Assembly: GCA_001750645.1 (NCBI GenBank)
Contig: MEIF01000228.1
Span: 79,322 to 143,321, forward strand
Reading direction: 5' to 3'
Source: Gammaproteobacteria bacterium AqS3
GTDB lineage: Bacteria; Pseudomonadota; Gammaproteobacteria; MEIF01; AqS3
Length of the DNA: 64,000 nucleotides
The position numbers were made by a program, and so were the translations under genes. This document shows positions 15,075-54,092 of this stretch, in pieces (positions within the stretch are counted from its first letter, which is position 1; each line of letters starts with the position of its first letter). Under the pieces are notes generated by a model. That model worked only from the letters and a program-made list of their open reading frames with translations, had not been told where the DNA came from and ran no database searches.

Positions 15075-15128
15075 TGAGCGGATTGCTTGACTCTGGGTGA
15101 TTTCTAGTAAAAAACAGAAGTCCGGGCT

Positions 15129-17006
15129 TCAAGCATCCAATATCTCAATTTGATCTTCTGAGAAATAACCTTTTTCTATAAGTTCCTCTCGCACTTTGCA
15201 TGGGTTGAGAGTAAACAGAATAATGACTAAATCTTTTTTAGCTCTGGAAAAGCTTACATAAGCCAGTTTTTTGGTTCGATCCTTTTGCTTTTCAGAAGAA
15301 CTTTCACCGGATGTTTCTGGTGACAGTAATTTAGCAAAATTGTAATTATTCCAATTTGTTTCAGTGTCATCATAGAAAACTAAAACTTTGTCATATTCTT
15401 CACCCTTCACACCATGCTGTGTGCTAAACGGAGTATTTTCATAAATAAAGTCGTAATACTTCTCCAATTGATCTGTCTTCATTTCAAAAAATCGATCAGC
15501 CAGCCATTCGCCCTTGTCTTTTTCATGTTCATTTTCGTCATATTCTTCAGACCTGACAGTTCGCTGAATCTGATCAGCAAGTCTGGTGGAAGCGGGAATT
15601 ATTTTGAGCTTGAGAGAGAGCTCAAGTATTTCTCTTAAGGAGCTCTTTTTCCATTCTTTAACTAGAGTCCTTACTGCTTTGCGCGCCTTTTTTCTGACGA
15701 AGCCAAGTGTTTCGTCAGAGCTTGGGCTTAAAAGAGGGCTGGATTCTTGAAGAATCTTAAAAACCTCCTGCTGATCATCTTTATCAAATGCTCGAACAAG
15801 TGGAATTAGCGGGTCAAAAAAGGGCCTTAATAAAAAATGCTCTCCTTTTTGGTAGTCATTTTTAGTTGACAGGCTGGCATAAGGCCCATTGAATAATTCA
15901 TGCAACTCCAGAAACCCCAATCGCCTTGCTATCATTTTATGAGTCAAAAATAAACTTTTAATTTTTGTGTCGTCTTGCCAATTCAGTTTGTCTAGTGCCG
16001 CATCAAACTTGGTGAGTGCGCGATCCATTTGATCACTGCTATAGGTTTTTCTATAGCCTTTTCCTTTTTCAGATTGCACCAGCATTACTTGAACACTGCC
16101 CTGGCAATTCTCTCCGGCTGGAACTTGCTGGACATCTTGTCTAAAGGAATTTAACAGCTGGATTACCGCTTTGGAGCAACGATAATTTTCCCGCTTGGTA
16201 ATTACTTTTAGGTGTGCACCTTCGCTAAAATTATCAGATCGCTCATCATAAATTTGCTGCATGGGATCCCCAAAATATCCAACGATGGGAGGTCCTTCTT
16301 TGGAAGTTAGTAGGTTTAGCGCACAGATAATGGAGGAATCAGTATCTTGTGCCTCATCGACAAAGATATAAGGGTATTTCTGTCCTATGATCTTTTGAAA
16401 GGCCGGAAATTTTTTGATCATCAGCCCTGAAAGCTCGATAACATCATCATGATCCAATTGCCCTTCTTCGTAATTTTTAGATGGGCTGTCATCATATTTG
16501 AATTTTTCGATTTCATTTATATTTTCCAGCACCTGTTCATATTTAGCGATTCTCTCTTGCGCATTTGTTGCGGCAGTACTTCTTCCATTGGCTCTGAGCT
16601 TGTTTTTCGCTATCTGGGATGGGATGATGCAATCTTTTATCATTGTTTTGATTTCTTGTTGAAAGCTTTTGATCTCTCCCCACAAAAATGAGTGAAGGGT
16701 AGAAACTATAAATAAATCATCGAAATTTAAACGTTTCAATATGACATTGACAGCTCTATTGGTGTATGTAATGCATACAACGCGCCGACCCTTTTTTCTA
16801 AGCAGAGCCCTTTTATGCTGTCGAATGTAATCTAGGGCATTAATCAAAGATCTGGTCTTGCCCGATCCTGCACCGGCAACCACAGCAAAGCTTTCATCCT
16901 TATCAATGCAATTTCGAATCTCCCTATCCGAATCCGAGAGAGCATTCCGTTTTGGTGACGTCAAGTCTTTCCTATTGTTCTTCAGCCCGTTGTTCGTTCT
17001 AGTCAT
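15129..17006 (-). CDS. gajB: UvrD/PcrA/Rep-like SF1 helicase, GajB-like (Gabija-like pair 1)
   Basis: Walker A AVVAGAGSGKTRSL, motif II FVDEAQD, C-terminal VSFSRAKKDL. 4-nt overlap with the upstream OLD-family gene. ~36% GC. Confidence 0.7.
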   Translation of the reverse strand: MTRTNNGLKNNRKDLTSPKRNALSDSDREIRNCIDKDESFAVVAGAGSGKTRSLINALDYIRQHKRALLRKKGRRVVCITYTNRAVNVILKRLNFDDLFIVSTLHSFLWGEIKSFQQEIKTMIKDCIIPSQIAKNKLRANGRSTAATNAQERIAKYEQVLENINEIEKFKYDDSPSKNYEEGQLDHDDVIELSGLMIKKFPAFQKIIGQKYPYIFVDEAQDTDSSIICALNLLTSKEGPPIVGYFGDPMQQIYDERSDNFSEGAHLKVITKRENYRCSKAVIQLLNSFRQDVQQVPAGENCQGSVQVMLVQSEKGKGYRKTYSSDQMDRALTKFDAALDKLNWQDDTKIKSLFLTHKMIARRLGFLELHELFNGPYASLSTKNDYQKGEHFLLRPFFDPLIPLVRAFDKDDQQEVFKILQESSPLLSPSSDETLGFVRKKARKAVRTLVKEWKKSSLREILELSLKLKIIPASTRLADQIQRTVRSEEYDENEHEKDKGEWLADRFFEMKTDQLEKYYDFIYENTPFSTQHGVKGEEYDKVLVFYDDTETNWNNYNFAKLLSPETSGESSSEKQKDRTKKLAYVSFSRAKKDLVIILFTLNPCKVREELIEKGYFSEDQIEILDA

Positions 17007-19060
17007 GACGAAGGATTATCCATCACAGACACTAACCATTGCAGGCCTTTGGATATATATTGAGGAGTAACCCATTCAACGTCGCTACTCATCACTTCAA
17101 GAGCAAATTCGGTTTTTTTGTAATTTGGTGACTTTACAGTTGAATAAACTTTTTTGTAATCCTCTGAAAAATTTTCGTCTTCACCAAGTTTTATAAAATT
17201 TTTAAGAAACGAATTTGCTCTAATCAAATTGATGTTGTGGTAAATAAAGGATTCTTCAAAAGTTCTGGGTATCATTTCTTGTTCCCCAGGATAGGGAGAT
17301 ATGGAGTTTTGAAAAGTGATCCCCAGGTCTTTCTGTTCCGGAGAGATATGCAGGTGGGGCTCTTCATTTGATATTTTCAGTAAATCTGAAATAGCTTTTT
17401 TGTTAACAAGAGATGTAATGGTTTTATTGCTGGAAACCGCACCAGATTGGCAGGCCATGCATGCTTTTCGATTCTTTCGAGGGTCGATTGAATCAAGGTC
17501 CGAAATAATGAGAGCTGGCAGGTTTAAGAATTTGATTAAAGGAACTAACTGATGTGCGTATGCCCCTCCTACTTCTAGAATTGTCAAATATTTGCTTGAA
17601 AGATCCCGAGCTTCTTTCTCGATAAATTTTGGCAAAAGCAGTTTCTCGGTGGCCCCTTCAACTAAGACTGCTCCATCTGAGAAAAACAAATCACAGTGAG
17701 TGAGTCTCAGATATTTTTTGAGAAAATTGACATTTTTCTCTGAATTTTCTTTGCTGGAAAAATCTTTTAGATCTAGAATTTTTGTGGCTATTTTTCGATC
17801 ATCAGATTCTTTTATTTCAGACCTGCATCTTTGAAAGTAACGAATGGAGGTGAAATCCCCCTCATCAATAATGTGGGGCGAGTGAGTGCTTATTAAAAGT
17901 TGAGGGTTGGATAATTCGTTATTTTCCGGGTTGCTGCCCCTCTCTATTACTTTTCTTATTTTTCGAATAAATGTTTGTTGCACCTGTGTGTGCAGGTGAA
18001 CTTCAGGCTCTTCGACGAAAATGAGGTGACAGGGCGGTTGAGTTTCTTCTATAGTCAGCCATTTTCTCTGGAAATGACTGATCTGGGCTGCTATATAAAT
18101 GAGGTTCTTGAAACCCAATCCATTGTAGGCTTCCGGCAGTTCATAGTCAGGATATTTGCTGTCTGCGTAAAGTAAAGTGGTACTTCCTTGAAGGGCGTCT
18201 TCTGGCTTCAGAGTTGACGATATTCTTAATTCTCTGTCATTTGCAGATGGAAAACCCAAGTCACTAATAATGTCAAATAATGGATTAAACTGCCTATCGT
18301 AATGTTCAGAAAGTTTTCTGTTGCTCTCATCAATGACTGCGAATGCTTCATCGTCAGCTTCTAATTTTTCCAGATTGGCTTTGTAATACTCATTTAGGAT
18401 GCTAGACAGTCTTGTGCTCCTCGCGGCTTCTTTGTCATCAATGTTCCTTTGAGCGTCGACAAAGTCGACCGCAATTAGGCTTCTTAAAGCTCGCCTTCCT
18501 TCTTCTCCTTCTAAGGCATGCGGCTTTGTCAAACTTTTGTTGAATGAATCACCAGTTTTTTCTAACTTGAAGTATTTCAGACTGAAGTGATTTTTCAGTC
18601 GATCTTTCTCAGATAAAAACCGTGATAGCTTTATATCCGGGCTGGATTTTCTACTGCTGTCAAATTCACTGATTAGTTCAGTTTGATCATTCACTGAAAA
18701 TGAAATTCTGATGCCTATTTCAGAATATTCTTTTTCTAGAGAGGTTAACAAGTTATAAACTTTTCCATATTCAGCTTCTGGATTGATGGAAAACCAAAGA
18801 TCCAAGTCGATCGATGGAATCTTGTTTTCTCTTTCTTTTTCCTCTTCGCCGATCTGATCTATTTTTTGCAATAGCGGTACTGAAAAATCATAAATTTGAA
18901 ATTCAGAGTTCCGCCCAGGAAGAAATAGCCTGAAAATCATGGATGCGGATGTTTTGCCGGAATTGTTCGGACCAACCAGTATGGTGTCCGTATCGCTGAG
19001 ATTGACCTCGACATTTTCCAGTCGCCTGAAATTTCTGACGCAGAATCTATCTAGTTTCAT
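17003..19060 (-). CDS. gajA: OLD-family ABC-type ATPase with C-terminal TOPRIM nuclease domain, GajA-like (Gabija-like pair 1)
   Basis: Walker A GPNNSGKTS. D-loop/Walker B LIFVEEPEVHLH. H-loop STHSPHII. TOPRIM-like VLVEGATEKLLL ... ALIISDLDSIDP. Immediately upstream of and coupled to the UvrD-like gene. Confidence 0.75.
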   Translation of the reverse strand: MKLDRFCVRNFRRLENVEVNLSDTDTILVGPNNSGKTSASMIFRLFLPGRNSEFQIYDFSVPLLQKIDQIGEEEKERENKIPSIDLDLWFSINPEAEYGKVYNLLTSLEKEYSEIGIRISFSVNDQTELISEFDSSRKSSPDIKLSRFLSEKDRLKNHFSLKYFKLEKTGDSFNKSLTKPHALEGEEGRRALRSLIAVDFVDAQRNIDDKEAARSTRLSSILNEYYKANLEKLEADDEAFAVIDESNRKLSEHYDRQFNPLFDIISDLGFPSANDRELRISSTLKPEDALQGSTTLLYADSKYPDYELPEAYNGLGFKNLIYIAAQISHFQRKWLTIEETQPPCHLIFVEEPEVHLHTQVQQTFIRKIRKVIERGSNPENNELSNPQLLISTHSPHIIDEGDFTSIRYFQRCRSEIKESDDRKIATKILDLKDFSSKENSEKNVNFLKKYLRLTHCDLFFSDGAVLVEGATEKLLLPKFIEKEARDLSSKYLTILEVGGAYAHQLVPLIKFLNLPALIISDLDSIDPRKNRKACMACQSGAVSSNKTITSLVNKKAISDLLKISNEEPHLHISPEQKDLGITFQNSISPYPGEQEMIPRTFEESFIYHNINLIRANSFLKNFIKLGEDENFSEDYKKVYSTVKSPNYKKTEFALEVMSSDVEWVTPQYISKGLQWLVSVMDNPSS

Positions 19061-19099
19061 ATTTTTGACTGTACTCGATTATTTCGCTCCAACAGCATT

Positions 19100-21796
19100 C
19101 TAGACGGATGCCCCGGTCGCCTCGTCCGCAGATCTGGGGGTGAAGGTCAGCTGCCCGCCCTCGGCGCCCACGTCGAGTGCGGTCCCGGACGGGTATTTGT
19201 CCTCCAGCAGCAGCTGCGAGAGCGGATTGAGCAGGTGGGTTTCGATGGCGCGGCGGATCGGTCGGGCGCCGTAGATCGGCGAGTATCCGGCCGAGGCCAG
19301 GAAGTTCTCGGCGTCCTCCGACAGCACGATGTCCAGATCCTGCTGCTGCAGCCGCCGGCGCAGGTGCCGGATCTGAATGCCGATGATGTCGCGCACGTGC
19401 TCGCGCGCCAATGGATCAAACAGCACGATCTCGTCGACGCGGTTGAGAAACTCGGGCAGAAAGTGCTGGCGCAGCCGCTCCTGGACTGCGCGCTGCACGG
19501 TCTCGCGCTCGACATTCTGCTCGACCATTCGGGTGATCTCATCGGCGGCCAGGTTGGAAGTCATCACCACGACCACGTTGCGAAAGTCCACGGTGCGACC
19601 CTGGCCGTCGGTCAGGCGCCCGTCGTCGAGCACCTGCAGCAGCACGTTGAAGACATCAATGTGCGCCTTTTCTATTTCATCGAGCAGCAGCACCATGTAG
19701 GGCTGGCGCCGCACCGCCTCGGTCAGATAGCCGCCGTCCTCGTGGCCGACGTAGCCGGGCGGGGCGCCGATCAGGCGTGAGACCGAGTGCTGCTCCATGA
19801 ACTCGGACATGTCAATGCGCACCATGGCCTGCTCGGAGTCGAACAGAAACTCGGCCAGCGCCTTGCACAGCTCGGTCTTGCCGACCCCGGTCGGGCCGAG
19901 AAACATGAACGAGCCGTTGGGACGGCCCGGATCAGCCAGGCCGACCCGGGCGCGCCGGACGACGTTGGCCACCGCAGTCAGGGCGGCCTCCTGTCCGACC
20001 ACGCGCTGCCGCAGGGCATCCTCGATGTGCAGCAGGCGCTCCCGCTCCCCCTGGCGCAGCCGCATCACCGGAATGCCGGTCCACTTGGCGATGACCTCGG
20101 TGACCTCGTCTTCGGTGACGCGGTCGCGCAGCAGCCGGCTGGGGGAGTCCCCGTCCTCGGCCGCATCGCTGTCGCTGTCGCTGTCGCTCTGCGCGGAGGT
20201 GCGCTCGGCCTGAAGCATCTGCTTCTCCAGCTCGGGAATGCGCCCGTACTTGAGCTCGGACATGCGGGTCAGATCGTTGTCCCGGCTGGCCTGCTCCAAC
20301 TCCAGCTTGGCCTGCTCGAGTGCGCTCTTGAACTGCGCGGCGCCCTCGACCTTGGCTTTTTCGGCGCGCCAGACTTCCTCCAGGCCGGCGTACTCGGCCT
20401 CGACCTCGGCGATCTCCGCCTCCAGCGACTGCAGCCGCTCGGCGGCCTCGGCCTCGGTTTCCTTGCTGAGCGCCTCGCGCTCCATCTGCAGCTGCACCAG
20501 CCGGCTGTGGAGGCGGTCCATCGGCTCCGGCAGCGAGTCGATTTCCATGCGGATCTGGCTGGCGGCCTCGTCGATGATGTCAATCGCCTTGTCGGGCAGA
20601 TTGCGCTCGGGGATGTAGCGCACCGACAGCCGCGTCGCTGCGATCAGTGCCGAGTCGGTGATCGACACGCCGTGATGCACCTCGTAGCGCTCCTTCAGCC
20701 CGCGCAGGATGGCGATGGTGTCCTCCTCGCTGGGGGTGTTGACCAGCACTTTCTGGAAGCGCCGCTCGAGCGCCTTGTCCTTTTCGATGTACTGGCGGTA
20801 CTCGTCGAGCGTGGTCGCCCCGATGCAGTGCAGCTCGCCCCGCGCCAGCGCCGGCTTGAGCATGTTGCCGGCGTCCATGGCTCCCGAGGTGCGGCCGGCC
20901 CCGACCACCGTGTGCAGCTCGTCGATGAAGATGATGTACTCGTCGCGGTGCTGCTCGAGCTCCTTCAGCACCGCCTTGAGGCGCTCCTCAAATTCGCCGT
21001 GGTACTTGGCGCCGGCGATCAGGGCCGAGAGATCCAGCGAGAGGATTTCGCGGCTGCGCATGGCCTCGGGGACCTGGCCGTTGACGATGCGCTGCGCCAG
21101 CCCCTCGACGATGGCGGTCTTGCCGACGCCGGGTTCGCCGTAGAGCACCGGGTTGTTCTTGGTGCGCCGCTGCAGCACCTGGATGGTGCGGCGGATCTCC
21201 TCGTCGCGTCCGATGACCGGATCCAGCTTGCCCTCGCGCGCCAGGGCCGTCATGTTGACGGTGTAGCGCTGGAGGGCATCGCGCTCGTCCTCGCTGGAGG
21301 GCGAGCTGACCGGACCCTGCCGGCTGCGCAGCTCGTCGATGCGCTGGTGCAGCTGGGTCAGGTCGACACCGGAGCGCTGCAGCAGCTGGCCGATGGCCTC
21401 GCCCTCGCCGCTCGCCGCCAGCAGAAAGTGCTCGCTGGCGATGAACTTGTCGCCCCGCCTGTGCGCCTGGCTGTGCGCCACCTGCAGATGGCGTCGCAGT
21501 TCCCGGTGCGGAACGATCTCGCCCTGCTCGGCATCCGCCGATTTCGGCAGCGCCTCGATGCGGGCCTCCAGCAGCTCTTTCAGGGTTTCGGTTGAGCCGC
21601 CGGCCTGCTGGATCAGGGGCGAGATGCTGTTGTCCAGCTGTCGCAGCAGCACCAGCAGAACGTGCTCGCTCTGCACCTGCAGCTGACCCGAGGTGCGCGC
21701 GAACAGCTGCGCCTCCTCAATGGCTTGGGTGAATCTTCTGGTGAAGTGTTCCTGCACGGTAATGAGGGGAGATGTCCACGCCCCTTTAATGGTCAT
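19100..21796 (-). CDS. clpB: Chaperone ClpB (AAA+ disaggregase); start at ATG 21796 or GTG 21757
   Basis: Two AAA+ modules ([16 protein letters not shown]), coiled-coil M-domain, [14 protein letters not shown]-domain. The ORF track's extra ~300 N-terminal codons are a high-GC artefact. Confidence 0.95.
20166..20189 (-). repeat. Hexanucleotide SSR (TCGCTG)x4 on the + strand inside clpB, encoding (SD)4
   Basis: Read directly: tcgctgtcgctgtcgctgtcgctc. In-frame (SD)n insert in the ClpB linker ([17 protein letters not shown]). Confidence 0.8.
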
Positions 21797-21868
21797 TGCC
21801 GCGCACTTTTTCAAGGAGGGGGGTTTGGGACGGGTGATATAGTCGGCCAGTTTTTCAGGGGGTCCGCT

Positions 21869-22366
21869 GTGCGACATCTGAGAGAAATCATCGTTTTTGC
21901 CGCAGTGATGCTCGCCCTCGCCGGCTGTGGCGAGCCCCCTGCTCCCCCTCCTCCGCCCGCTGCGGGACCGTATCCCGAGGGCGCCGACGCCCGTGCTGCC
22001 ATCGCGGTCGGATTGCAGCGCGCCAGGGAGAGCGGCAAGCGTGTCCTGCTGAAATTCGGCGCCAACTGGTGCCCTGACTGCCTGGCGCTGGAGCAATCCT
22101 TCACCGGGGACGGCCCGACCGGCGAGCTGATTCGCGCCAACTTTGAAGTCGTCAAGATCGATGTCGGTCGCTGGGATGTCAATATGGACGTGGCCGCCGA
22201 CTACGACGAGGCAGCCTCCAACGGAATCCCCTCGATAGCTGTTCTGGACAGCGAGGGCAAGCTGCTGCACGTGACCAAGGCCAGGGAGCTGGCCAGTGCG
22301 CGCGGCATGTCCGAGGACAACATTCACGAGTGGTTTGGCGACCTTCTGAAACAGCTGGATGGCTGA
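21869..22366 (+). CDS. Thioredoxin-fold lipoprotein (GTG start)
   Basis: Lipobox MLALAGC after GTG 21869 with AGGGGG RBS. CxxC-like WCPDC thioredoxin-fold motif. Confidence 0.6.
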   Translation: MRHLREIIVFAAVMLALAGCGEPPAPPPPPAAGPYPEGADARAAIAVGLQRARESGKRVLLKFGANWCPDCLALEQSFTGDGPTGELIRANFEVVKIDVGRWDVNMDVAADYDEAASNGIPSIAVLDSEGKLLHVTKARELASARGMSEDNIHEWFGDLLKQLDG

Positions 22367-23354
22367 GGGGCAGTATCCGGCAGTGCGTCTGCGCCGCCTG
22401 CGCAGCCAGGCGTTTCTGCGCCGGCAGGTCGCCGAGCATCGCCTTGACCCGGCCGGGCTGATCCTTCCGGTATTTGTGCATGGGCACTCTGAAAGCGAGC
22501 CGATCCCGGCGATGCCCGGAGTCAGCCGGCTCTCAACCGAAGACCTGCTGCGCACCGGAGCGCGCTGCCTCGAGCTCAACATTCCCTCGATCGCCGTCTT
22601 CCCGGCAATCGATCCGGCGCTCAAAACTCCGGACGGGCGGGAGGCGCTCAACCCCGACGGTCTGGCGCAGCGCAGCGTGCGCGCCCTCAAAACCGAATTC
22701 GGAGATCGACTCGGCGTCATTGCCGACGTCGCCCTGGATCCCTATACCAGCCACGGGCACGACGGCGTTCTCGATGAGGCGGGTCGGGTGCGCAACGACG
22801 AAAGCGTTGCACTCCTGGTCGACCAGGCCGTCTCGCTGGCTGAGGCCGGCGTCGACGTCGTCGCACCCTCGGACATGATGGACGGGCGCATCGGGGCGAT
22901 TCGCAGCGCACTTGAGTCCGCCGGCCACAGCGACGCCGTCATCCTGTCCTACGCCGCCAAATACGCCTCGAGCTTCTACGCCCCGTTTCGTCACGCCCTG
23001 GGCTCGGCCGGTGCGCTGCGGGGCGACAAGCGCACCTATCAGATGGATCCCGCCAATGCGCGCGAAGCCGAGCGGGAGGCGGCGCTGGATCTGGCCGAGG
23101 GTGCGGACATGATCATGGTGAAGCCCGGCATGATGTACCTGGACATCGTTCGCCGCCTTGCCGAGCGCTTTGAGGCGCCGGTGCTGGCCTATCAGGTCAG
23201 CGGCGAATATGCTATGTTAAAAAACGCGATCAACTCGGGCGCACTCGGATCCGAGGCTGTCTTGGAAACCTTGAGAGCCTTCTTTCGAGCCGGCGCCCGA
23301 GCGGTTCTGACCTACCATGCACTGGAGGCCGCCGAGGCCATCCGCAAACTGTGA
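22359..23354 (+). CDS. hemB: Porphobilinogen synthase (delta-aminolevulinic acid dehydratase)
   Basis: Full-length HemB colinearity (PSDMMDGRIGAIR, active-site Lys region SYAAKYAS, C-terminal GADMIMVKPG). Confidence 0.9.
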   Translation: MAEGQYPAVRLRRLRSQAFLRRQVAEHRLDPAGLILPVFVHGHSESEPIPAMPGVSRLSTEDLLRTGARCLELNIPSIAVFPAIDPALKTPDGREALNPDGLAQRSVRALKTEFGDRLGVIADVALDPYTSHGHDGVLDEAGRVRNDESVALLVDQAVSLAEAGVDVVAPSDMMDGRIGAIRSALESAGHSDAVILSYAAKYASSFYAPFRHALGSAGALRGDKRTYQMDPANAREAEREAALDLAEGADMIMVKPGMMYLDIVRRLAERFEAPVLAYQVSGEYAMLKNAINSGALGSEAVLETLRAFFRAGARAVLTYHALEAAEAIRKL

Positions 23355-23383
23355 TCCACCCCAAAACAAAGGAGTAAAGTCAG

Positions 23384-23710
23384 ATGAGCAACGTCGTTGA
23401 AATTAACCGGGACAACTTTGACCAACTGGTGCGGCAGGCCGGCATGCCCGTGCTGGTTGATTTTTGGGCGGCCTGGTGCGGGCCCTGCAAGCAGATCGCC
23501 CCGCTGATCGAACAGATGGCTGAAAGCCGAAGCGATCTTCGCATCGGCAAGGTCGATGTCGATGCCAACCCCGAGCTGGCCGCTGAATTCGGCGTGCGCA
23601 GCATCCCCACCCTGATGCTGTTTTCCAACGGCGAGGCGGTCAACACCCGTCTGGGCACATTGACCCAGAATGAACTCGATGAATTTGTCCAGTTGAATCA
23701 GGGTGACTGA
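23384..23710 (+). CDS. trxA: Thioredoxin 1
   Basis: WAAWCGPCK active site. 108 aa. Upstream of rho as in E. coli. Confidence 0.92.
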   Translation: MSNVVEINRDNFDQLVRQAGMPVLVDFWAAWCGPCKQIAPLIEQMAESRSDLRIGKVDVDANPELAAEFGVRSIPTLMLFSNGEAVNTRLGTLTQNELDEFVQLNQGD

Positions 23711-23876
23711 ATTTCGCGTTTTAACTATGTGCCTTGTGCTAAAATCACGCCGCTCTGGGCGCCTGGGTGAGCGGGCGCGGATGATGAGACCCCAGACTTC
23801 CCCTATGCATCGGGCTTGGAAAATTAGGCTGGCCTGAAAATCATTTACACCGACACTTCGCAAAGAAGGATCTTTT

Positions 23877-25364: not shown

Positions 25365-25881
25365 CCGGCCCTTGATTTGCGGGCGGCAGGCCCTCTCCAC
25401 ACCACCACTATCAGGACTTTGCCGGTCGCCGGTCGGGCTTTTCTTCCCCTGCGGCGGCGGGGTGAAAGATTCGAGCCTGCGACCTTTTGACCCCTGACAG
25501 ACTGCCGGGCGCTGCACCGCTAGGCCCGCTCCTGAGGGGAGCGCGGATCATTGGCGCAGCACTTCGGCGGCTCGCCACTCGCGGGCCGGCGAATCCGCAG
25601 CGGGGTCAGATTGTGATCGTTTCCAGCGCAGCGGGGGCAGTGGTCGGGGTTGGTCGCCCGGTATGCCCGCAGCGCATCAAAGTCGGTCTCGGCGATCACG
25701 GCGGCGAGGCAGCTCATCTGCGCACCTCCCCGAACACCCCAACCGGCAGATCGATGGCGGACAGCAGACTGGCCATCTGTCAGAAGAGAACAGCGCCGCC
25801 GCCGATCAGCAGCGTCAAGCCGGCGATAAATCTATGTATCCGAATGCTGGAATGTGCCTTTCGGGAAAAGCCGTCAAAGCA

Positions 25882-27714
25882 TCACCACCCGCAGGAGCGA
25901 CCGGCGTTCTGCTCATCGAGCCATATCTTCAGCGGTGCAAAGTACTCCTGAATGACGCTGGCATCCATGCTGCGCTGACCGGCGAGCACTTCCATGGTGT
26001 CCTGCCACGGACGGCTCAATCCCATCTCCAAGGCCTTGATCAGGCGCTCACCGGCCTCCTTGCTGTCGTAGACGGTGCACAGGTGCAGGGGGCCTTCGTA
26101 ACCGGCGCTCTTGCACAGCGCCTTGTGGAACTGGAACTGCTGAATGTGCGCCAGAAAGTAGCGCATGTAGGGCGTATTTCCGGGGATGTGGTATTTGGCG
26201 CCGGGGTCGAAGTTGTCCTCGGTGCGCTCCACCGGCGGGACGATGCCCTGGTACTTCAGGCGCAGATCCCACCAACCCTGATTCCATTTGCTCTCGGGCA
26301 ATTCACCGCTGAACACCTGCCAGCGCCACTTGTCGATCAGCAGACCGAACGGCAGAAAAGCGATCTTGTCCAGCGCCTGCCGCAGCAGCATGGAAATGTC
26401 GTCGCGCTGGCGGGGCGCCTCCTCGAGCATTCCGATCTTGACCAGGTAGTCGGGCGTGATCGACAGGGCAATGGTGTCGCCAATGGCCTCGTGAAAGCCG
26501 TCGTTGGCTCCGCCTCTCAGCAGCAGCGGCAGGTGTTTGTAGGCGCGCTGATAGAAGTTGTGGCCGAGCTCGTGGTGGATGGTTGAGAAATCCTCGGCAT
26601 CCGGCTTGATGCACATCTTGATGCGGATGTCATCCTGATCGTCCAGATTCCAGGCGCTCGCATGGCAGACCACGTCGCGATCACGCGGCTTGAGGAACAG
26701 GGAGCGATCCCAGAAAGTCTTGGGAAGGGGCTCAAACCCGAGGGAGGTGAAGAATTTTTCGGCGATTCGCACCATCTCGACCTCATCGGTATCCGCCAGC
26801 AGGGCGTCAAGGTCGTAGCCCGCCCCCACTCCGGAGCCGGCGGGCTTGATCAGGTCGTAGACATTGCCCCACTGCTGCGCCCACATGTTGCCCAGCAGAT
26901 GCGCCGGGATCGGCTTGTCCAGGGGGACCTGATCGTCGCCGTAGCGCTCGTTCAGCTTGGCGCGCACGTGGCAGTGCAGTGCGGTGTAGAACGGCTTGAC
27001 CTGATCCCAGAGACGATCCATCTCCTGGACGAAGGTATCGGGTCTCATGTCATACCCGCTGCGCCACAGATGCCCGATATCCTCATAGCCCAGATCGCGC
27101 GCACCCTCGTTGCCGAGCTGCACCAGCTCCTGGTATTCGCTCCGCATCGGCGGGGAGATGGTGCGCCAGCCCTTCCAGGCCTCCAGCAGATCGTTGTAAT
27201 TGCGGCTCTTGGCCATCACCTCGGACAGCTCGCCGAGATTGCGGCAGCTTTCGGTCCCGTCGGGCTGCTCTTGGCAGTAGGTGCCCTTGCCGTACGTCCC
27301 CTCCAGGCTGGCCTCGATTTCTGAGAGTCGCTTGCTCTTTTCCGGGTCGCCCGGCGGCGGCAGGGTCAGCCCGCCCTTGAGGATTTCCAGCTGCCGGCGA
27401 ACCTCCAGGGGCAGTGCGATGCCGTCAAAGTAGGGAGCCTTGACCGCGTACTCCTTGACGATCGACTTGACCTGCTCGGAGGTGTAGGCGCTCAGCTCCT
27501 GGCTGTCGTAGGTGATGAAGTTGGCGGCAATCCAGGCTGCGTGGGCAGCGGCCTTGCCGGGCCCCTCCAGATCTTTTTCAAGATCTTGGAGAAACTGCCT
27601 GGCCCCGGCCTCGTTCCGGGAATACTCCTCCTGAGAGCAGGAACCGAGCAGCAGTGCGACCGACCACAGGGCGGCCAGAGCGACCGCCTTGGAAAAACCC
27701 CTGATTTTGTCCAT
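25882..27714 (-). CDS. M2-family peptidyl-dipeptidase (bacterial ACE-like zinc metallopeptidase), lipoprotein
   Basis: HHELGH zinc motif plus downstream E. ~610 aa. Lipobox LLLGSC. Confidence 0.75.
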   Translation of the reverse strand: MDKIRGFSKAVALAALWSVALLLGSCSQEEYSRNEAGARQFLQDLEKDLEGPGKAAAHAAWIAANFITYDSQELSAYTSEQVKSIVKEYAVKAPYFDGIALPLEVRRQLEILKGGLTLPPPGDPEKSKRLSEIEASLEGTYGKGTYCQEQPDGTESCRNLGELSEVMAKSRNYNDLLEAWKGWRTISPPMRSEYQELVQLGNEGARDLGYEDIGHLWRSGYDMRPDTFVQEMDRLWDQVKPFYTALHCHVRAKLNERYGDDQVPLDKPIPAHLLGNMWAQQWGNVYDLIKPAGSGVGAGYDLDALLADTDEVEMVRIAEKFFTSLGFEPLPKTFWDRSLFLKPRDRDVVCHASAWNLDDQDDIRIKMCIKPDAEDFSTIHHELGHNFYQRAYKHLPLLLRGGANDGFHEAIGDTIALSITPDYLVKIGMLEEAPRQRDDISMLLRQALDKIAFLPFGLLIDKWRWQVFSGELPESKWNQGWWDLRLKYQGIVPPVERTEDNFDPGAKYHIPGNTPYMRYFLAHIQQFQFHKALCKSAGYEGPLHLCTVYDSKEAGERLIKALEMGLSRPWQDTMEVLAGQRSMDASVIQEYFAPLKIWLDEQNAGRSCGW

Positions 27715-27720
27715 TTGAAA

Positions 27721-29514
27721 TTAATTCCCCCCGTTGGCAACCCATTCATCGATCAAACTCTCGAGAATGTCCAGAGGCACGGCGCCGTTTTGCAGCACCA
27801 CCTCGTGAAACTTGCGGATGTCAAAATTTTCGCCCAGCTGCTCGCGCGCGCCCTCGCGCAGCTCGAGGATCTTCATCATTCCGATCTTGTAGGCGGTGGC
27901 CTGGCCGGGCATGACGATGTAGCGCTCGATGGATTTGGCTGAGTCGTTCTCGGGGTTCGGGGTGTTTTCAATCAGCCAGTCGATGGCCTGCTGGCGGGTC
28001 CACTTCTTGCTGTGCAGGCCGGTGTCCACCACCAGGCGGGCGCTGCGCCAGAGCTCCATGGCCAGTCGACCGAAATCCGAGTACGGATCCTGATACATGC
28101 CGACCTCCTTCGGCAGATATTCCGAATACAGCCCCCAGCCCTCGATGTAGGCCGTGAAGTTGCTCAGCTTGCGGAACTCGGGAACCCCCTCCAGCTCGGC
28201 TGCGACGGCCAGCTGCAGGTGGTGGCCGGGAACGCCCTCGTGATAGGCCAGCGCCTCCATCTGATATTTCGGCATGTCGGCCATGACGGACAGGTTGGCG
28301 TAGTAGATCCCCGGGCGCGATCCATCCGGGGCGGGGCGCGAGTAGAACGCCTTGCCGGCGGCCTTCTCGCGGAACTTCTCGACCCGCTTGACCTTCAGCT
28401 TGGAAGTCGGAATGGTGATGAACTGCTCGCCCAGCTTGGCCTCCATGGCATCGATGATCTTCTGGGTGTCGTCCAGATAAGCCTGCCTGCCGGCATCGGT
28501 TTCCGGGTAGTAGAACTGCTTGTCGCTGCGCATGAACTTGAAGAAGGCCTGCAGGTCGCCGCGGAAATTGACTTGCTTGCGCAGCTCGTCCATCTCGGCG
28601 TGAACGCGCTTGACATCCTCCAGACCCTTTTGGTGGATCTCATCCGCCGTCATGTCGGTTGTGGTGTAGCTGCGCAGCTGGAAGTTGTAGTACTCCTCGC
28701 CGTCGGGCAGCTTCCAGACCCCGTCGTCCTCGGTGGCCTTGCTTTCAAGGTCGCGCAGCACGCCGATCAGCTGTCGATAGCCGGCGCTGAACTGCAGCAG
28801 CAAGGCATTGGAGGCGCGCTCGATGAGTTTGTCAGTTTTGGCCTGGTCAAGGTTCAGCGCCTTCACCTTCTTGACGAAGTCGGCGTAGACGGCGTTGTCA
28901 AAATCGTCCTTCTTGTTCAGAGGCTTGCCCGACAGCACGCGCTCGCTGGTTCCGATCACCAGAGGGTAGACGAACTTGGGCGGGAAGATGCCCTCCTTCT
29001 GCTGTTTCTGCAGGAGCACATTGACCTGCTTGAGCAGCTTCTCGACTCCCCTGATGCGCTCGATGTAGGCGAGGGCATCCTCCTCGGAGTCGATTCTGTG
29101 GAAGTTGATCAGCAGGGCGGGTATCCCTGCCTGGACGCCGAACATCTGGTTGACCGGATAGGTGTGCAGGCGCCAGCGGTTGCGCTCGATCTGGCGCTCC
29201 AGCATGCGCTCGAACAGATCGTAGTTCAGGCGGTTTTCGGGGGTGAGCTGGTCATAGCTGAGACCGCGCAGCTCTTCTAACTGACGCTGAGCCATCCTGT
29301 AGCTCATATCCATGTCGCGCTCGGCGTAGCTGTCCCACTCCCCGTAGCGTTCCCTTCGTCCCAGAGCCGTCAGCGTCTCCGGCGAGGTCATCAGCTGCTC
29401 CTCGTAAGCCTTGGCGAAGAATTCCTCGGCTGATTCATTGGCGAGCTGATTCAGATACTCACAGCCCCCCAGCAGAAAAGCCATGAGAACGACAGTGAAT
29501 AGGCGATAGTGCAT
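27721..29514 (-). CDS. DUF885-family putative metallopeptidase lipoprotein
   Basis: HEGVPGHHLQ motif. Lipobox FLLGGC after the ATG at 29514. Confidence 0.6.
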   Translation of the reverse strand: MHYRLFTVVLMAFLLGGCEYLNQLANESAEEFFAKAYEEQLMTSPETLTALGRRERYGEWDSYAERDMDMSYRMAQRQLEELRGLSYDQLTPENRLNYDLFERMLERQIERNRWRLHTYPVNQMFGVQAGIPALLINFHRIDSEEDALAYIERIRGVEKLLKQVNVLLQKQQKEGIFPPKFVYPLVIGTSERVLSGKPLNKKDDFDNAVYADFVKKVKALNLDQAKTDKLIERASNALLLQFSAGYRQLIGVLRDLESKATEDDGVWKLPDGEEYYNFQLRSYTTTDMTADEIHQKGLEDVKRVHAEMDELRKQVNFRGDLQAFFKFMRSDKQFYYPETDAGRQAYLDDTQKIIDAMEAKLGEQFITIPTSKLKVKRVEKFREKAAGKAFYSRPAPDGSRPGIYYANLSVMADMPKYQMEALAYHEGVPGHHLQLAVAAELEGVPEFRKLSNFTAYIEGWGLYSEYLPKEVGMYQDPYSDFGRLAMELWRSARLVVDTGLHSKKWTRQQAIDWLIENTPNPENDSAKSIERYIVMPGQATAYKIGMMKILELREGAREQLGENFDIRKFHEVVLQNGAVPLDILESLIDEWVANGGN

Positions 29515-29702
29515 AACCGACCCTCTTTGGGTGGAAATTAAGCCGAGCATTGTAATGGCAACTCAGCCGAATATTCATAGCGGGCGGGTTGAATGGGTTC
29601 GCCGCCAAGCAACGGACTTTTATTGGGATGAGTGGATGGTTGACCCAATCCGCCCTTTTCAGTTGAGTTGGGGTGCATATTGGCCCACGCAGAGGCCTGT
29701 TC

Positions 29703-31640
29703 TTATGCAATGTCTACCTCTTCCTCGGCAAACCAGTCATTTCTCAAGACGTAATCTTTCACCTTGTCGGGGTTTTCAGCATAAGCCACCAAAGCCAGGC
29801 TGCTTTTGCTGCGGCTGCAGGCAACATAGAAAAGCCGCCGGGTTCGATCAATTGAGCTGTCTCTGCCCTCGTCAAGGTTGCTTATGTCAGTCCGCGAATA
29901 CGCCCTGTCGCCGAGCAGCTTGCCGTAGCTGAACATGAAGCCGCGCGACTCGGAATCGTCCATGATCACCATGACACGCTCAAACTCCAAGCCCTTCACG
30001 CCTTGGTGGGTGTCAAACGCTGTCAGCCCGTCAATATATTTCTGATAGATGTCGATCTCGGAGAATGGAGCCTCCAAGAAGGAAAGCACGGCTGCTGTGC
30101 GTTCATCAAGCGGATCGGCTTGCATGTCTTCCTGGGAGGAGTCCGCAGAGCTGTCTAAGACCGCGTGGGCAGACAGCAAGACCTCTGGGATCTCGAACAA
30201 TTCGTGTTCAAGAATGCAGCGCAAAACGTCGGCGCATGTCGGTGTGCCTTTGCCGCAAAGCGACATCAGGGCATCAACGCCGGCCTGAGCCTGCATCATC
30301 AATTGCTTTGGGTCGGAAGCCTCTTTGAGAGCGTCTCGAGTCAACAGCGGAGACGACTGCCGGATCAGCCTGAAAACTGTGAATCGGTCGTTTTTCTGTT
30401 GGGCCTGAACAAGCGGAAAAGCCAATTGAGTGAAGAACCGAAGCAGGGGGAGGCTGCCATCGAGCAGTCCGGTGCGCCAGCCATCGATTTTGTAGAGAGG
30501 CTTGAAGACCGCTTCAAACTTCAGGCGCCTTGCAGCCATGTGATGCTCAAGCGTGAGAATCTTGCACTGATCTCGATTGCCCCAGCCGGCATCACCGGAA
30601 TATTCAGCCATTTGGCTTCGGATATCCTCTTCGATTGCCGTATGGTCTGTTACATCGGCGCGTCGGATAAACAGCCTCACCTTCCCATTAAGTGCATCCG
30701 ATCTGGCTTCCTGAGTGTGCTCATCCGCTGTCTCCCGAATCTTATTGATGAGTCGCACAACCCGCTTGGGGCAGCGATGATTGAGTCTTTTGGAGGGCCT
30801 TCCCCAACGCTCGGGAAGCTCCTCTTCGATATGCTCTTTGCCGTCCTGATAAATTCGCTGCATGACATCGCCGATCAGTCCCAGGCAAAACCGGTCTGAA
30901 TGCCTTTGATCAACCGTGAAGAGGGCGCCAATCAGATGGCGGTTGGTGTCCTGACTTTCGTCAATTAGCAGGATGGGAAATCGACCAACCAGTATCCAGC
31001 CCATGAGGGGTTTCTGAGATAGAAAATCTGCGCAGATTTGAATGACTTCTGCATGGTTGAGTGCATTGGATTCGGAGTTTTCACCGTTGGGGCTGTAGAT
31101 GAAAGACTGAATGGCATCAAGCCGCTCTAACTGCTTTCCTTTGGATTTGATTTTGGCTTGCCGTTCTATCGATGCCTTGGTTCTAGAGCGGCCTTTATCT
31201 TCCTTTATTTGGAGTTCATCTATTTCCTCTTGCAAATTTTTGCGGAGCCATTCTCTAATGTCGTGATCAAAACCCTTAATCAGCTCCCAGGCAAAGCTGT
31301 GAATGGTCGCTACGTAGAAGAGAGGATGGGAATCTGTCCGCCGAATGATTTCATCACGGGCGGCATTGGTATAGGTGATCACACCGACACGATGGCCGTG
31401 CAATGTCAGTTCGCGTTCATATTTTGAGCGAATATGATCCAGTGAATTGACCAAGGTCCGCGTCTTTCCTGAGCCGGCACCTGCAAAAAGAAAGAAGCTT
31501 CTCGGCTCTTTGGGATTGAGATAGCCGGCGATTTCCTCATCTACGGGGTCGTCTAAGGTGCTGTTTACAGTCAGGGACGGACTAATGGTCATGGCCTTTT
31601 TGAGGCTTTGTATCTTCAGCTGGCTTTGGATTAACGACAC
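29703..31640 (-). CDS. gajB: UvrD-like SF1 helicase, GajB-like (Gabija-like pair 2); start may be the internal Met near 31592
   Basis: Walker A FLFAGAGSGKTRTL, motif II LLIDESQD, C-terminal VACSRSKSSL. Paralogous to the 15129..17006 product. Confidence 0.7.
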   Translation of the reverse strand: MSLIQSQLKIQSLKKAMTISPSLTVNSTLDDPVDEEIAGYLNPKEPRSFFLFAGAGSGKTRTLVNSLDHIRSKYERELTLHGHRVGVITYTNAARDEIIRRTDSHPLFYVATIHSFAWELIKGFDHDIREWLRKNLQEEIDELQIKEDKGRSRTKASIERQAKIKSKGKQLERLDAIQSFIYSPNGENSESNALNHAEVIQICADFLSQKPLMGWILVGRFPILLIDESQDTNRHLIGALFTVDQRHSDRFCLGLIGDVMQRIYQDGKEHIEEELPERWGRPSKRLNHRCPKRVVRLINKIRETADEHTQEARSDALNGKVRLFIRRADVTDHTAIEEDIRSQMAEYSGDAGWGNRDQCKILTLEHHMAARRLKFEAVFKPLYKIDGWRTGLLDGSLPLLRFFTQLAFPLVQAQQKNDRFTVFRLIRQSSPLLTRDALKEASDPKQLMMQAQAGVDALMSLCGKGTPTCADVLRCILEHELFEIPEVLLSAHAVLDSSADSSQEDMQADPLDERTAAVLSFLEAPFSEIDIYQKYIDGLTAFDTHQGVKGLEFERVMVIMDDSESRGFMFSYGKLLGDRAYSRTDISNLDEGRDSSIDRTRRLFYVACSRSKSSLALVAYAENPDKVKDYVLRNDWFAEEEVDIA

Positions 31641-33900
31641 CCAAACTCTCTTGCTGGTTATTTAGTTGCTTAATCAGCCACCGTAGCCCTTCACGAATAT
31701 AAGAAGGCGGCTGTAATTTTATGGGTTCTGAGATATATAGAAGATCAAGTGCGAATTCTGCTTTTCCTCCAGCTTCCAATGCTTGAAATATTTGGTTGCG
31801 CAATGCTTCTAGATCAGAGCTTGTATCAATTGCTGTCTTAAATTTCTCCCCTAGGCTGTTACTTGGAAGATGATTTTGAAAGAGTTTTAGGTTCTCCATT
31901 ATCAATGCGTCTTCAAAAGTGTTGCACAAGGCCTCTTCGCGCTTTCCTTTAAATTCCACGCTGACTGGCCGTTGGTATGCGACGCGAATGGAAAAATGCT
32001 GGCTTTCATATTTTTTACTCTTTAACTTTTCATCAAGATCCAAGAGGACATCCAGTTCTTCAACACCGGGACACCACGACTTGAGGGTGTAGTTGCGTGT
32101 TTTAAGGCTGCTATCGCGCCTTGGTATTTCTTTTGCTCGGTCTGTGTTAGAAGCATCAAGATCGGTGATGATGAGAGTTGTCAGGCCCAGGTGTTCAACC
32201 AAATCTTTGAACCTATGAGCATGACTTCCGCCAATCTCAAGCCATGAGATGTAGCACTGCTGCAAAGCATTGAGTTCTGGCTGGTGTTCGACAAAGAACG
32301 GAATCAAGATTCTTTCAGCCGGGCCTTCCACAAATACCGCCGCATCGGCAAAAAGCAGGTCACAGTGAGTCACCTTGATATATCGAGTGACAAAGCGCTT
32401 GGTCTCATCTTCTGCCCCGAATATATTACTCAGATTGATGACGCATGAGAGGGGAACAGATGCTGCATCGATGGGAAGACGGCGAAAATATCGCAGGTCA
32501 TCAAATTCACATTCATGGGCGATATGGCTGGAGTGCGTGCTCACGATCACCTGGGTTTTCAATTCCTCTGATTGCCCTAATTCACTGTGGCTTCGAAGAA
32601 ATTTATAGGCCTGTCTGATAAATACCTGTTGAACCTGTGTGTGAAGGTGGGCTTCAGGTTCTTCAATGAGCACAAGATGCAAAGGCGGAATATGCACATC
32701 AGATTCTTCCTCTGATTGAATATTGGCTTTGCCAACGCGCATCCGCGCATCGCGAAAGCTCATTAACCGGAAAATCATGGATATAAGGTTTTGATAACCC
32801 AGACCGTTGGAGTCTTCAGGGAGGCTAAGTTCAACTGTGTTCCCGTCATCTTGTGTGGTTACAGCATATTGGACGGCAGTGGGATGATTAAGACCATCAA
32901 CCGGCTTGATGCGTGTGGAAATTTTGAGCTTTGGATCGGTGATGCCCGGATACCCCATTTTTTCCACTTCTTGGATGGCTGCTGAGAATCCATTCATAAG
33001 TTTCTCATCAAAAGTCTCTTGAGCCGTTTTGATGGCAGCCAACGCTCTGATGTCTTGTTCGCTTGAATGTTTAAGCGGGTCGAGGTGCCTATTCCAATAG
33101 CGCTGAAGTTGATGGGACATGCGCCGACTGGAGCTTGATCCGGCAAGTGTGCCGTCATCATCGGGATCGCCGGACTCAGTGGTTTGGCCAAAACCCCGCT
33201 GGGCGCCGATCTCATCAATTTGGATGAGACCTTTGAGGGGGTTGCTGCCGATGGGCTCTGCGTTATCTGGCAGCGGTTGAGGCTGTGACTCGCCACGATC
33301 AGCCTTGCTGAATTTTGCGGGATCAAGAATGTACGCCTCAATGGAGAAGAGGTCGCTCAATCTGCGCTTTAGAAAATCGGTAAGTGAAAGGGGCCAAAGC
33401 AAATCTGATAGATCACCTTCAGTTCGTTTCTTGGTCGTTTCCAAAGAATGCGATTGGGCACGAGCGACTACATAGGCCTTTTGGAGTTTGGATTCGTCTT
33501 TCGGTTGAAGCCGAAAGCGAACGCCAAGCCGTCCGCCATCCCAATCAAGCGTCGGGATTATCTTTTGGACTAAATGAGCCTCTTCCTTGTCGGCGTGAAG
33601 CCAGACATCCAGAAAGGGCAGGATGGGGGCCCAATCGGGCTCAGGAAGAGGCTGATCTTCTGTATTCGCCCTCTCCCAGGCAGCCCCCATTTCGTCAATT
33701 TTCGGCCAATTGGACAGCGTGAAGTCATCGAGAGAAAAAGGATTTCTGCCTTTTTCGATAAGAAAGTACTGAAGGGCGCGCATTGCCGAAGTCTTTCCGC
33801 TGTTATTCGCCCCGACAAAAACTGTGGTCTCCCCAGAAAATTCGATCCGCACTGATTTGAGCTTTCTAAAATTTGCAATCTCAATACATTCAATGTGCAT
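31582..33900 (-). CDS. gajA: OLD-family ATPase + TOPRIM nuclease, GajA-like (Gabija-like pair 2)
   Basis: Start chosen at ATG 33900 (AGGGAA RBS; aligns with the N-terminus of pair 1). GANNSGKTS Walker A, LVLIEEPEAHLHTQVQQVFIR, STHSSHIAHE, TOPRIM VFVEGPAERILIP ... LIITDLD. Confidence 0.75.
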   Translation of the reverse strand: MHIECIEIANFRKLKSVRIEFSGETTVFVGANNSGKTSAMRALQYFLIEKGRNPFSLDDFTLSNWPKIDEMGAAWERANTEDQPLPEPDWAPILPFLDVWLHADKEEAHLVQKIIPTLDWDGGRLGVRFRLQPKDESKLQKAYVVARAQSHSLETTKKRTEGDLSDLLWPLSLTDFLKRRLSDLFSIEAYILDPAKFSKADRGESQPQPLPDNAEPIGSNPLKGLIQIDEIGAQRGFGQTTESGDPDDDGTLAGSSSSRRMSHQLQRYWNRHLDPLKHSSEQDIRALAAIKTAQETFDEKLMNGFSAAIQEVEKMGYPGITDPKLKISTRIKPVDGLNHPTAVQYAVTTQDDGNTVELSLPEDSNGLGYQNLISMIFRLMSFRDARMRVGKANIQSEEESDVHIPPLHLVLIEEPEAHLHTQVQQVFIRQAYKFLRSHSELGQSEELKTQVIVSTHSSHIAHECEFDDLRYFRRLPIDAASVPLSCVINLSNIFGAEDETKRFVTRYIKVTHCDLLFADAAVFVEGPAERILIPFFVEHQPELNALQQCYISWLEIGGSHAHRFKDLVEHLGLTTLIITDLDASNTDRAKEIPRRDSSLKTRNYTLKSWCPGVEELDVLLDLDEKLKSKKYESQHFSIRVAYQRPVSVEFKGKREEALCNTFEDALIMENLKLFQNHLPSNSLGEKFKTAIDTSSDLEALRNQIFQALEAGGKAEFALDLLYISEPIKLQPPSYIREGLRWLIKQLNNQQESLGVVNPKPAEDTKPQKGHDH

Positions 33901-34045
33901 TGTGAAATCATTCCCTGATGACAGTTTCTGTTGAACTGCCGGCACCTGGTTGATAGGGGGGTTGACAGGAAGACGCAAAAACGAGCGAAGCCATGGCTGT
34001 CAGGATGTGAATACGCAGCATTTCATTAGCCCTCCTCAATCCAGC

Positions 34046-34122
34046 TGGCGCGCCCGGCAGGATTCGAACCTGCGACCAACGGCTTCGGAAGCCGCTACTC
34101 TATCCAGCTGAGCTACGGGCGC
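34046..34122 (-). tRNA. tRNA-Arg (anticodon CCG)
   Basis: Reverse complement folds as a canonical cloverleaf: acceptor GCGCCCG/CGGGCGC, D-arm GCTCAGCTGGATAGAGT, anticodon loop TTCCGAA, T-arm GCAGGTTCGAATCCTGC, 3' GCCA. Confidence 0.85.
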
Positions 34123-50552: not shown

Positions 50553-50690
50553 CGAATGGCGGTATGCGGCTGAAGTTTGATGGGTGCGGACTTGAAATGT
50601 TGAAAGGGCATACCATATAAGGCCCAGATGAGTTGGTCGGGGCCTGGGCTTGTTCAGGTTCCGCAGTTTTGAATCATGGAGGACGCTGTT

Positions 50691-54034: not shown

Positions 54035-54092
54035 CCCAATAAAGCAAAATCAACGGCGGATTATACCGGGCATATTCGCCGCTTTGGCTGAC

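Follow-up and report, generated by a model that had tools for sequence, protein, structure and literature searches.

Two divergent Gabija-like operons in the chromosome of the sponge symbiont AqS3 point to separate acquisitions

Class 2 OLD nucleases are OLD-family ATPase-TOPRIM genes that stand in tandem with a gene for a UvrD/PcrA/Rep-like helicase. Gabija of Bacillus cereus VD045 (PDB 8jq9, 8sm3, 8u7i, 8jqb) is a two-gene operon, gajA then gajB, in which GajA combines an ABC-type ATPase at its N-terminus with a TOPRIM domain at its C-terminus, and GajB belongs to the UvrD-like superfamily 1 (SF1) helicases; PDB 8jqb is listed as a GajA-GajB 4:4 assembly. According to one report, GajA DNA binding and nicking are held off by nucleoside triphosphates in vitro, and GajB senses the DNA termini that arise from GajA nicking (10.1101/2023.05.02.539174). 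In Pseudomonas aeruginosa PA14, defence requires both genes and their catalytic residues, is non-abortive, and targets linear DNA ends without RecBCD, with phage genome circularisation blocked; Gabija occurs in 13% of prokaryotic genomes and is among the commonest defence systems (10.1101/2025.08.30.673261). Here we examined a 64,000-nt stretch of DNA (hereafter the window, with positions counted from its first letter) from Gammaproteobacteria bacterium AqS3 (contig MEIF01000228.1 of assembly GCA_001750645.1, positions 79,322 to 143,321 of the forward strand), in which a first-pass annotation had proposed two Gabija-like gene pairs on one chromosome, some 11 kb apart. Pfam and PADLOC matches bear this out: two gajA-gajB operons, both on the minus strand, are separated by a measured gap of 10.6 kb (19060 to 29703).

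The first operon consists of gajA1 (17003-19060, minus strand; G+C content (GC) 38.7%), which encodes a class 2 OLD-type ABC-ATPase and TOPRIM nuclease of 685 aa (MBF2754405.1), and gajB1 (15129-17006, minus strand; GC 39.4%), which encodes a UvrD-like SF1 helicase of 625 aa (MBF2754406.1), with the gajB1 ATG and the gajA1 stop overlapping by 4 nt (ATGA). GajA1 matched the Pfam families AAA_15 in its N-terminal part (E 2.4e-49) and OLD-like_TOPRIM in its C-terminal part (E 6.1e-18), and the PADLOC GajA model PDLC00093 over its full length (E 8.6e-203); GajB1 matched UvrD-helicase (E 9.1e-19) plus UvrD_C, and the PADLOC GajB model PDLC00143 (E 4.4e-168). The second operon has the same composition, with gajA2 (31582-33900, minus strand; 772 aa; MBF2754395.1; GC 47.4%) again encoding a class 2 OLD-type ABC-ATPase and TOPRIM nuclease and gajB2 (29703-31592, minus strand; 629 aa; MBF2754396.1; GC 52.0%) a UvrD-like SF1 helicase, the start of gajB2 overlapping the end of gajA2 by 11 nt. 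Here the matches were AAA_15 (E 4.1e-51, N-terminal), OLD-like_TOPRIM (E 5.8e-16, C-terminal) and full-length PDLC00093 (E 1.4e-281) for GajA2, and UvrD-helicase (E 1.3e-16) and the GajB model PDLC00111 (E 4.8e-245) for GajB2. Position 33978, previously given as the end of pair 2, is an upstream TTG and not the start of gajA2, which we place at the ATG at 33900 because residue 27 of the long open reading frame (ORF) is where the PADLOC and Pfam matches start and the public record is 772 aa; the start of gajB2 is likewise set at 31592 (629 aa), and the exact GajA2 product is deposited in GCA_015278115.1. By their domain and PADLOC matches, both pairs have the make-up of class 2 OLD nucleases.

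We consider it very probable that these are two complete Gabija systems from distant "long GajA" sub-clades, which were transferred separately as gajA-gajB cassettes from a low-GC and an approximately 50% GC donor and which probably act independently. What the sequences themselves show is which genes the pairs contain and that these are intact, how far the pairs diverge and to which clades they belong, their foreign composition, and the joint inheritance of A and B as cassettes. GajA1 and GajA2 share 29% protein identity over their full length, as do GajB1 and GajB2 (29%; 229 bits), and the only blastn match between the two islands covers 47 nt at 83%. Near-identity at the nucleotide level, which would have pointed to a single recent origin, is thereby ruled out, and the low protein identity together with the lack of meaningful DNA similarity means that the second pair is neither a recent duplication nor an assembly artefact.

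Each pair has considerably closer relatives elsewhere (61-71% identity) than the other local pair (29%). The closest homologue of GajA1 (P0001) lies on an ENA metagenome contig, in a cassette (L082; GC 0.32) that is 61% identical in GajA and 61% in GajB, and that of GajA2 (P0122) on a Logan contig, in a cassette (L083; GC 0.51) that is 66% identical in GajA and 71% in GajB. A helicase gene stands next to each of these gajA homologues in the same gajA-gajB arrangement as in the local pairs, all cross-pair cassette comparisons gave about 29% identity, and no second Gabija was found alongside the nearest relatives' cassettes. The GajA1 and GajB1 homologue lists were drawn from the same contigs, and this, together with the matching A and B identities within cassettes, indicates that the two genes travel and evolve as cassettes. 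A neighbour-joining tree was built from the two local GajA sequences and 30 sampled homologues of each, 62 in all; in it the local copies were not nearest neighbours but fell into two reciprocally monophyletic clades, with identities of 42-92% within and 28-34% between clades; ranked by identity, the other local copy came 47th and 55th of 61. GajA1 itself is missing from the homologue list, its cluster being represented by a 30-aa fragment. For GajB2, a phmmer search of 1.84 billion representatives returned 416 clusters (50% identity) at E<=1e-30, of which the 150th scored 299 bits, against 229 bits for GajB1, so that more than 150 clusters are nearer to GajB2 than GajB1 is.

Composition agreed with these relationships. 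Host genes in the window have a GC of 60-67% and a third-position GC (GC3) of 0.80-0.90, in keeping with a host GC of about 65%, whereas island 1 (15075-19099; 4.0 kb) has a GC of 39.0% and a GC3 of 0.37 and island 2 (29515-34045; 4.5 kb) a GC of 49.6%, with a GC3 of 0.47 for gajA2 and 0.59 for gajB2. The contrast in GC between the loci noted earlier thus stands, and these values replace the original figures of about 36% and 48%. Synonymous codon usage of pair 1 was uncorrelated with that of the host (r = 0.11); pair 2 correlated with the host at r = 0.51 and best with its nearest foreign cassette, L083 (r = 0.83). Closer relatives elsewhere, separate clades and a relative-like composition together make independent horizontal acquisition from different donors, one of the two origins that the first-pass annotation had offered, well supported.

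We also looked at where relatives of the two cassettes are carried. In PLSDB, relatives of each clade occur on about 105 plasmids, two thirds of them predicted to be conjugative, and only 1-2 of 50,697 phage records hold a relative, which leaves phage-borne transfer unsupported as the main route. The nearest pair-1 cassette lies within a defence island (L082 1-7903; ENA ERZ25068633, contig ctg150094_3x_l), in which genes for a DEAD-box helicase, a T5orf172/MUG113 protein, a DUF5131 protein and an MmeI-like enzyme stand directly upstream of gajA; the MmeI-like gene is split between a 140-aa ORF for the N-terminal part and a 651-aa methyltransferase (MTase) ORF. Directly after the nearest pair-2 cassette is a helix-turn-helix (HTH)-HipA toxin-antitoxin-like pair (L083 4558-6167; Logan ERR13828585), another sign of cassettes moving within variable defence and addiction regions.

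Neither local pair is disrupted, an outcome that had been raised as an objection: there are no internal stops, and close homologues cover 96-100% of the queries. When we inspected alignments of the GajA1, GajA2 and GajB1 clades (25-26 sequences each), each of the three proteins had the consensus residue at all invariant columns of its own clade. In GajA1 these include Walker A K36, Q-loop Q204, Walker B E350/E351, H357, TOPRIM E468/E472 and D521/D523; in GajA2, G35/K36, Q234, E413/E414, H420, E525/E529 and D580/D582; and in GajB1, GAGSGKT (45-51), DEAQD (217-221) and the C-terminal helicase motifs. AGAGSGKT and IDESQD are present in GajB2, as read off the pairwise alignment of GajB1 and GajB2. 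Judged from these residues, the catalytic motifs of all four proteins are intact.

We then compared the local proteins with Gabija and OLD nucleases of known structure. Searches with clade profiles gave B. cereus GajA as the best PDB match for both GajA1 (E 1.1e-13) and GajA2 (E 1.1e-14), ahead of class 1 OLD, class 2 OLD C-terminal regions (6nk8 and 6njv, matched at E 1e-6 to 5e-11) and the retron/Septu ATPases; all other OLD-family nucleases scored under it. The local operons share with B. cereus VD045 the gene order, the ATPase and TOPRIM domains of GajA, the helicase type of GajB, and alignable Walker A/B motifs, TOPRIM glutamate and DxD, with B. cereus E379 and D432/D434 corresponding to GajA1 E468 and D521/D523 in the GajA1-clade alignment. 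An AlphaFold2 model of GajA1 (predicted local distance difference test (pLDDT) 78, predicted template modelling score (pTM) 0.73) retrieved B. cereus GajA chains at the top of a Foldseek search of the PDB (E 2e-18, target-normalised TM 0.48-0.60), with the retron Eco8 OLD nuclease and Thermus OLD as runners-up. The two GajA clades aligned with each other end to end in hhalign (probability 100%, 675 columns, 29% identity). As for other OLD relatives, class 1 (Thermus scotoductus, 6p74), class 2 (Burkholderia/Xanthomonas, 6nk8, 6njv) and retron Eco8 share the ABC-ATPase and TOPRIM domains, but class 1 OLD and retron OLD lack an adjacent UvrD-like helicase; Septu/retron PtuA shares the ABC-ATPase but not the TOPRIM core, and PtuA/retron systems have a different partner (PtuB HNH, or the retron reverse transcriptase and msDNA) in place of GajB. 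PA14 Gabija, which we liken to the local operons by its description, is likewise a proteobacterial gajA-gajB operon on a mobile island (PAPI-1) and has a GajB DExx motif, DESQ, as in GajB2 (IDESQD), but it is part of a conjugative element of 115 genes (10.1101/2025.08.30.673261), unlike the local cassettes, which were inserted bare, as two genes only.

Both islands are such bare cassettes set in housekeeping DNA. Island 1 lies between two stop codons, that of a beta-carbonic anhydrase gene (14352-15074, plus strand) and that of clpB (19100-21796, minus strand), and at both edges GC falls from 0.59-0.70 to 0.30-0.39 inside 100 nt; repeat scans gave no flanking direct or inverted repeats above chance, and the island holds no mobility gene. 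Between the clpB stop and the gajA1 ATG, on the same strand, are 39 nt (19061-19099), in which a consensus scan detected no minus-strand promoter and no terminator. Island 2 is bounded by the start of a DUF885 gene (29514) and the 3' end of tRNA-Arg(CCG) (34046-34122, minus strand; ARAGORN, and Rfam tRNA at 68.5 bits), which faces gajA2 over 145 nt and is a typical island insertion landmark. Island 2 nonetheless lacks what would identify it as a tRNA-targeted integrative island, namely an integrase and a distal direct repeat of the tRNA 3' end: neither an integrase ORF nor any mobility gene lies between 29515 and 34045, a 25-mer from the tRNA 3' end had no second copy at <=3 mismatches, near-matches to a 15-mer numbered 9 (9.3 expected by chance) with 0 at the island boundary, and the repeat scan of the island gave nothing above chance. 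The cassettes may have been inserted by recombination between homologous flanks, or may be what is left of larger islands that have eroded.

By analogy with B. cereus VD045 and P. aeruginosa PA14, each local GajA would assemble with its own GajB, and the complex would attack invading DNA. Two such systems in parallel would give wider or back-up protection, including against phage inhibitors that fit one variant only, and on the same analogy they most likely work independently. Mixed GajA/GajB assemblies appear unlikely at the sequence level, because A and B co-vary strictly within cassettes and identity across the pairs is 29%. We give little credence to a more specific proposal in which the variants are non-redundant, responding to different phage triggers or being inhibited to different degrees by anti-Gabija proteins such as Gad1, with pair 1 perhaps forming part of a clpB stress transcript. 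Different phage ranges or anti-Gabija sensitivities of the two pairs, which the first-pass annotation had raised along with mixed assemblies, would in themselves be plausible. As for the transcript, no promoter or terminator was detected in the 39-nt spacer, so pair 1 may ride on the clpB stress-response transcript, and we infer that clpB read-through is a possible source of gajA1 expression; if so, defence would be tied to the stress response in a sponge symbiont that is passed on vertically.

Several other explanations of the two pairs were weighed against separate acquisition. An ancient duplication within the lineage, followed by divergence and amelioration, was the second origin put forward by the first-pass annotation, and it would account for the full-length homology between the pairs, their shared best PADLOC GajA model (PDLC00093) and their position 10.6 kb apart on the same strand. 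Amelioration moves GC toward 65%, however, and duplicates would be mutual nearest relatives; both copies instead lie far under the host GC, with values like those of their nearest foreign relatives, many closer relatives of each are found in unrelated taxa, and the intervening DNA is native housekeeping sequence (clpB, hemB, trxA, rho). We therefore reject this origin as extremely improbable. Because the source is a metagenome-assembled genome (MAG), and island 1 has very sharp GC edges and lacks mobility signatures, one island, above all island 1 with its 39% GC, might be suspected of being a chimera of assembly or binning that does not belong to this chromosome, but this too is highly improbable. 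Each island has housekeeping genes of host composition on both sides, all in the same 311-kb contig. Every junction lies precisely in an intergenic spacer and truncates no gene, and a false join would not set one whole operon, and nothing else, between neighbouring genes that are both intact. Moreover, GajA1, GajB1, ClpB and GajA2 are each found on two NCBI contigs (311,513 and 172,753 bp), and GajB2 is found on one NCBI contig under each of two start calls (629 aa, and a 645-aa variant).

A functional link between the pairs, whether through mixed assemblies or cross-regulation as one higher-order system, would fit their closeness and common strand, and the 4:4 assembly of GajA and GajB (8jqb) makes mixing conceivable in principle. 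Yet strict A/B co-variation (61/61% and 66/71% to relatives, 29% across pairs), the single occurrence of the nearest cassettes of each clade, and separate acquisition with housekeeping genes between the pairs make such a link very unlikely. More may be said for one or both operons being silent or decaying cargo whose defence function has been lost, given that no consensus promoters were detected and that an MmeI-like Type IIG gene elsewhere in the window looks frameshifted, which would indicate that defence genes do decay in the AqS3 genome. All four gaj ORFs, in contrast, are full length, keep their clade-invariant catalytic residues and preserve their overlapping stop/start junctions, and we regard loss of function as unlikely.

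Two intact systems from separate donors thus remained the reading that we favored, although a number of points weigh against it. The activity of both AqS3 operons is predicted from their genes, and consensus scans gave no sigma-70-like promoter upstream of gajA1 or gajA2. The likeness to B. cereus GajA is limited: identity to GajA1 by structural alignment is ~12-15%, the profile match (E ~1e-13) comes in two local stretches, and the local proteins (685 and 772 aa) are 100-190 aa longer than the 578-aa B. cereus GajA, with the extra sequence within the ATPase region. The GajA2 model (pLDDT 60, ATPase core <50) is too poor for use. The local GajB proteins (625 and 629 aa) are likewise longer than B. 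cereus GajB (~494 aa), and the GajB1-clade profile is as close to PcrA or Rep as to B. cereus GajB (PcrA 1e-11, GajB 1e-11, Rep 1.1e-11, UvrD1 1.5e-11), reaching all of these helicases equally, so that GajB is by sequence a generic UvrD-family helicase and owes its label to the PADLOC models and gene context; a single-sequence search with GajB2 reached only Deinococcus radiodurans UvrD (1.5e-5). Since both clades are remote from all experimentally studied Gabija, transfer of the mechanism to AqS3 would be an extrapolation. As to the insertions, which we infer from composition and phylogeny, neither island has mobility genes or att repeats to account for them, and no empty site was found among 80 GTDB species loci retrieved with the M2 peptidase that lies between the islands; in a tblastn search over those loci, shared synteny was limited to DUF885-M2, in three loci.

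The presence of several Gabija loci in one genome has been documented before. Cold-seep sulfate reducers carry 2-4 Gabija systems per genome, the strain described in detail having one complete and one incomplete system (10.1101/2024.09.26.614923), Pseudomonas syringae has up to four (10.1101/2024.03.19.585818), and Weizmannia coagulans XZL9 has two loci (PMC8954581). These reports resemble AqS3 in having more than one Gabija locus but are automated defence-system counts, whereas in AqS3 both systems are complete, lie 10.6 kb apart, and are assigned to different sub-clades with different donor composition. AqS3 therefore adds a further, cleanly resolved case to a known pattern; its pairs neither form a new kind of system nor reveal a new mechanism. 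In a 2026 preprint on the AqS3 hologenome, in which defence systems are not discussed, the sponge Amphimedon queenslandica is described as having three dominant, vertically inherited gammaproteobacterial symbionts, of which AqS3 is one (10.64898/2026.08.05.743132). The two loci offer a clean example of defence-system stacking, with two complete variants in the core chromosome of such a symbiont, and, as "long GajA" variants that occur together naturally, a means of comparing phage range or anti-Gabija sensitivity between sub-clades. Public annotation gives the four genes generic ATPase/helicase names, and the Gabija label is thus a modest annotation gain.

The wider setting is chromosomal housekeeping DNA around both islands. 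The window sequence is identical over 22.3 kb to contig JADHEJ010000044.1 (311,513 bp; assembly GCA_015278115.1, "MAG: Gammaproteobacteria bacterium AqS3"). To the left of island 1 the gene order is bamD, rluD, pgeF and the carbonic anhydrase gene (can); between the islands, clpB, two thioredoxin-family genes (including trxA), hemB, rho, the M2 peptidase gene and the DUF885 gene; and beyond island 2, tRNA-Arg, dsbA, a cytochrome c gene, a GTPase gene, UDG, secDF, yajC, tgt and queA. The tRNA was the sole match in an Rfam scan. The M2 peptidase, which is angiotensin-converting-enzyme-like (Pfam E 1.8e-216), adjoins the DUF885 protein (25882-29514, minus strand), a pairing that we found again in three distant genomes (L007, L012, L033). 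In GTDB species genomes its best matches reach no more than 57-60% identity, so that this collection lacks a close sequenced relative of AqS3.

Other foreign or defence-like loci were also seen in the window. Two overlapping plus-strand ORFs, 59365-60930 and 60698-62146, correspond to positions 2-515 and 512-909 of the 912-position PADLOC model PDLC03598 (Type IIG restriction-methyltransferase; E 5.9e-193 and 3.4e-146). The first has MmeI N-terminal, helicase-spacer and MTase domains, and the stretch is foreign by its GC of 51-53%. Together (59365-62146) they look like an MmeI-like enzyme frameshifted near 60.7-60.9 kb, which would reflect either the decay of a defence gene or an error in sequencing; a split MmeI-like gene is thus carried both in the window and next to the nearest pair-1 relative, L082. 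A lower-GC block (42-55%) at 50676-55259 may be a ubiquitin-like conjugation defence island: it comprises a weak Multiubiquitin match at 50676-51257 (PF14452, E 9e-4), a ThiF/E1-like protein at 51631-53124 (PF00899, E 6.5e-30; PADLOC E1-E2 models to ~5e-16), and two minus-strand ORFs, 53099-54034 (GC 42%) and 54093-55259, with no Pfam or PADLOC match. Finally, a lone plus-strand ORF of 356 aa at 5069-6139 has a GC of 48% amid DNA of about 65% GC. Its protein had no PADLOC match, its N-terminal half is without a match, and its C-terminal part is a phosphoribosyltransferase domain (PF00156, E 6.7e-13); it is a single-gene foreign insertion.

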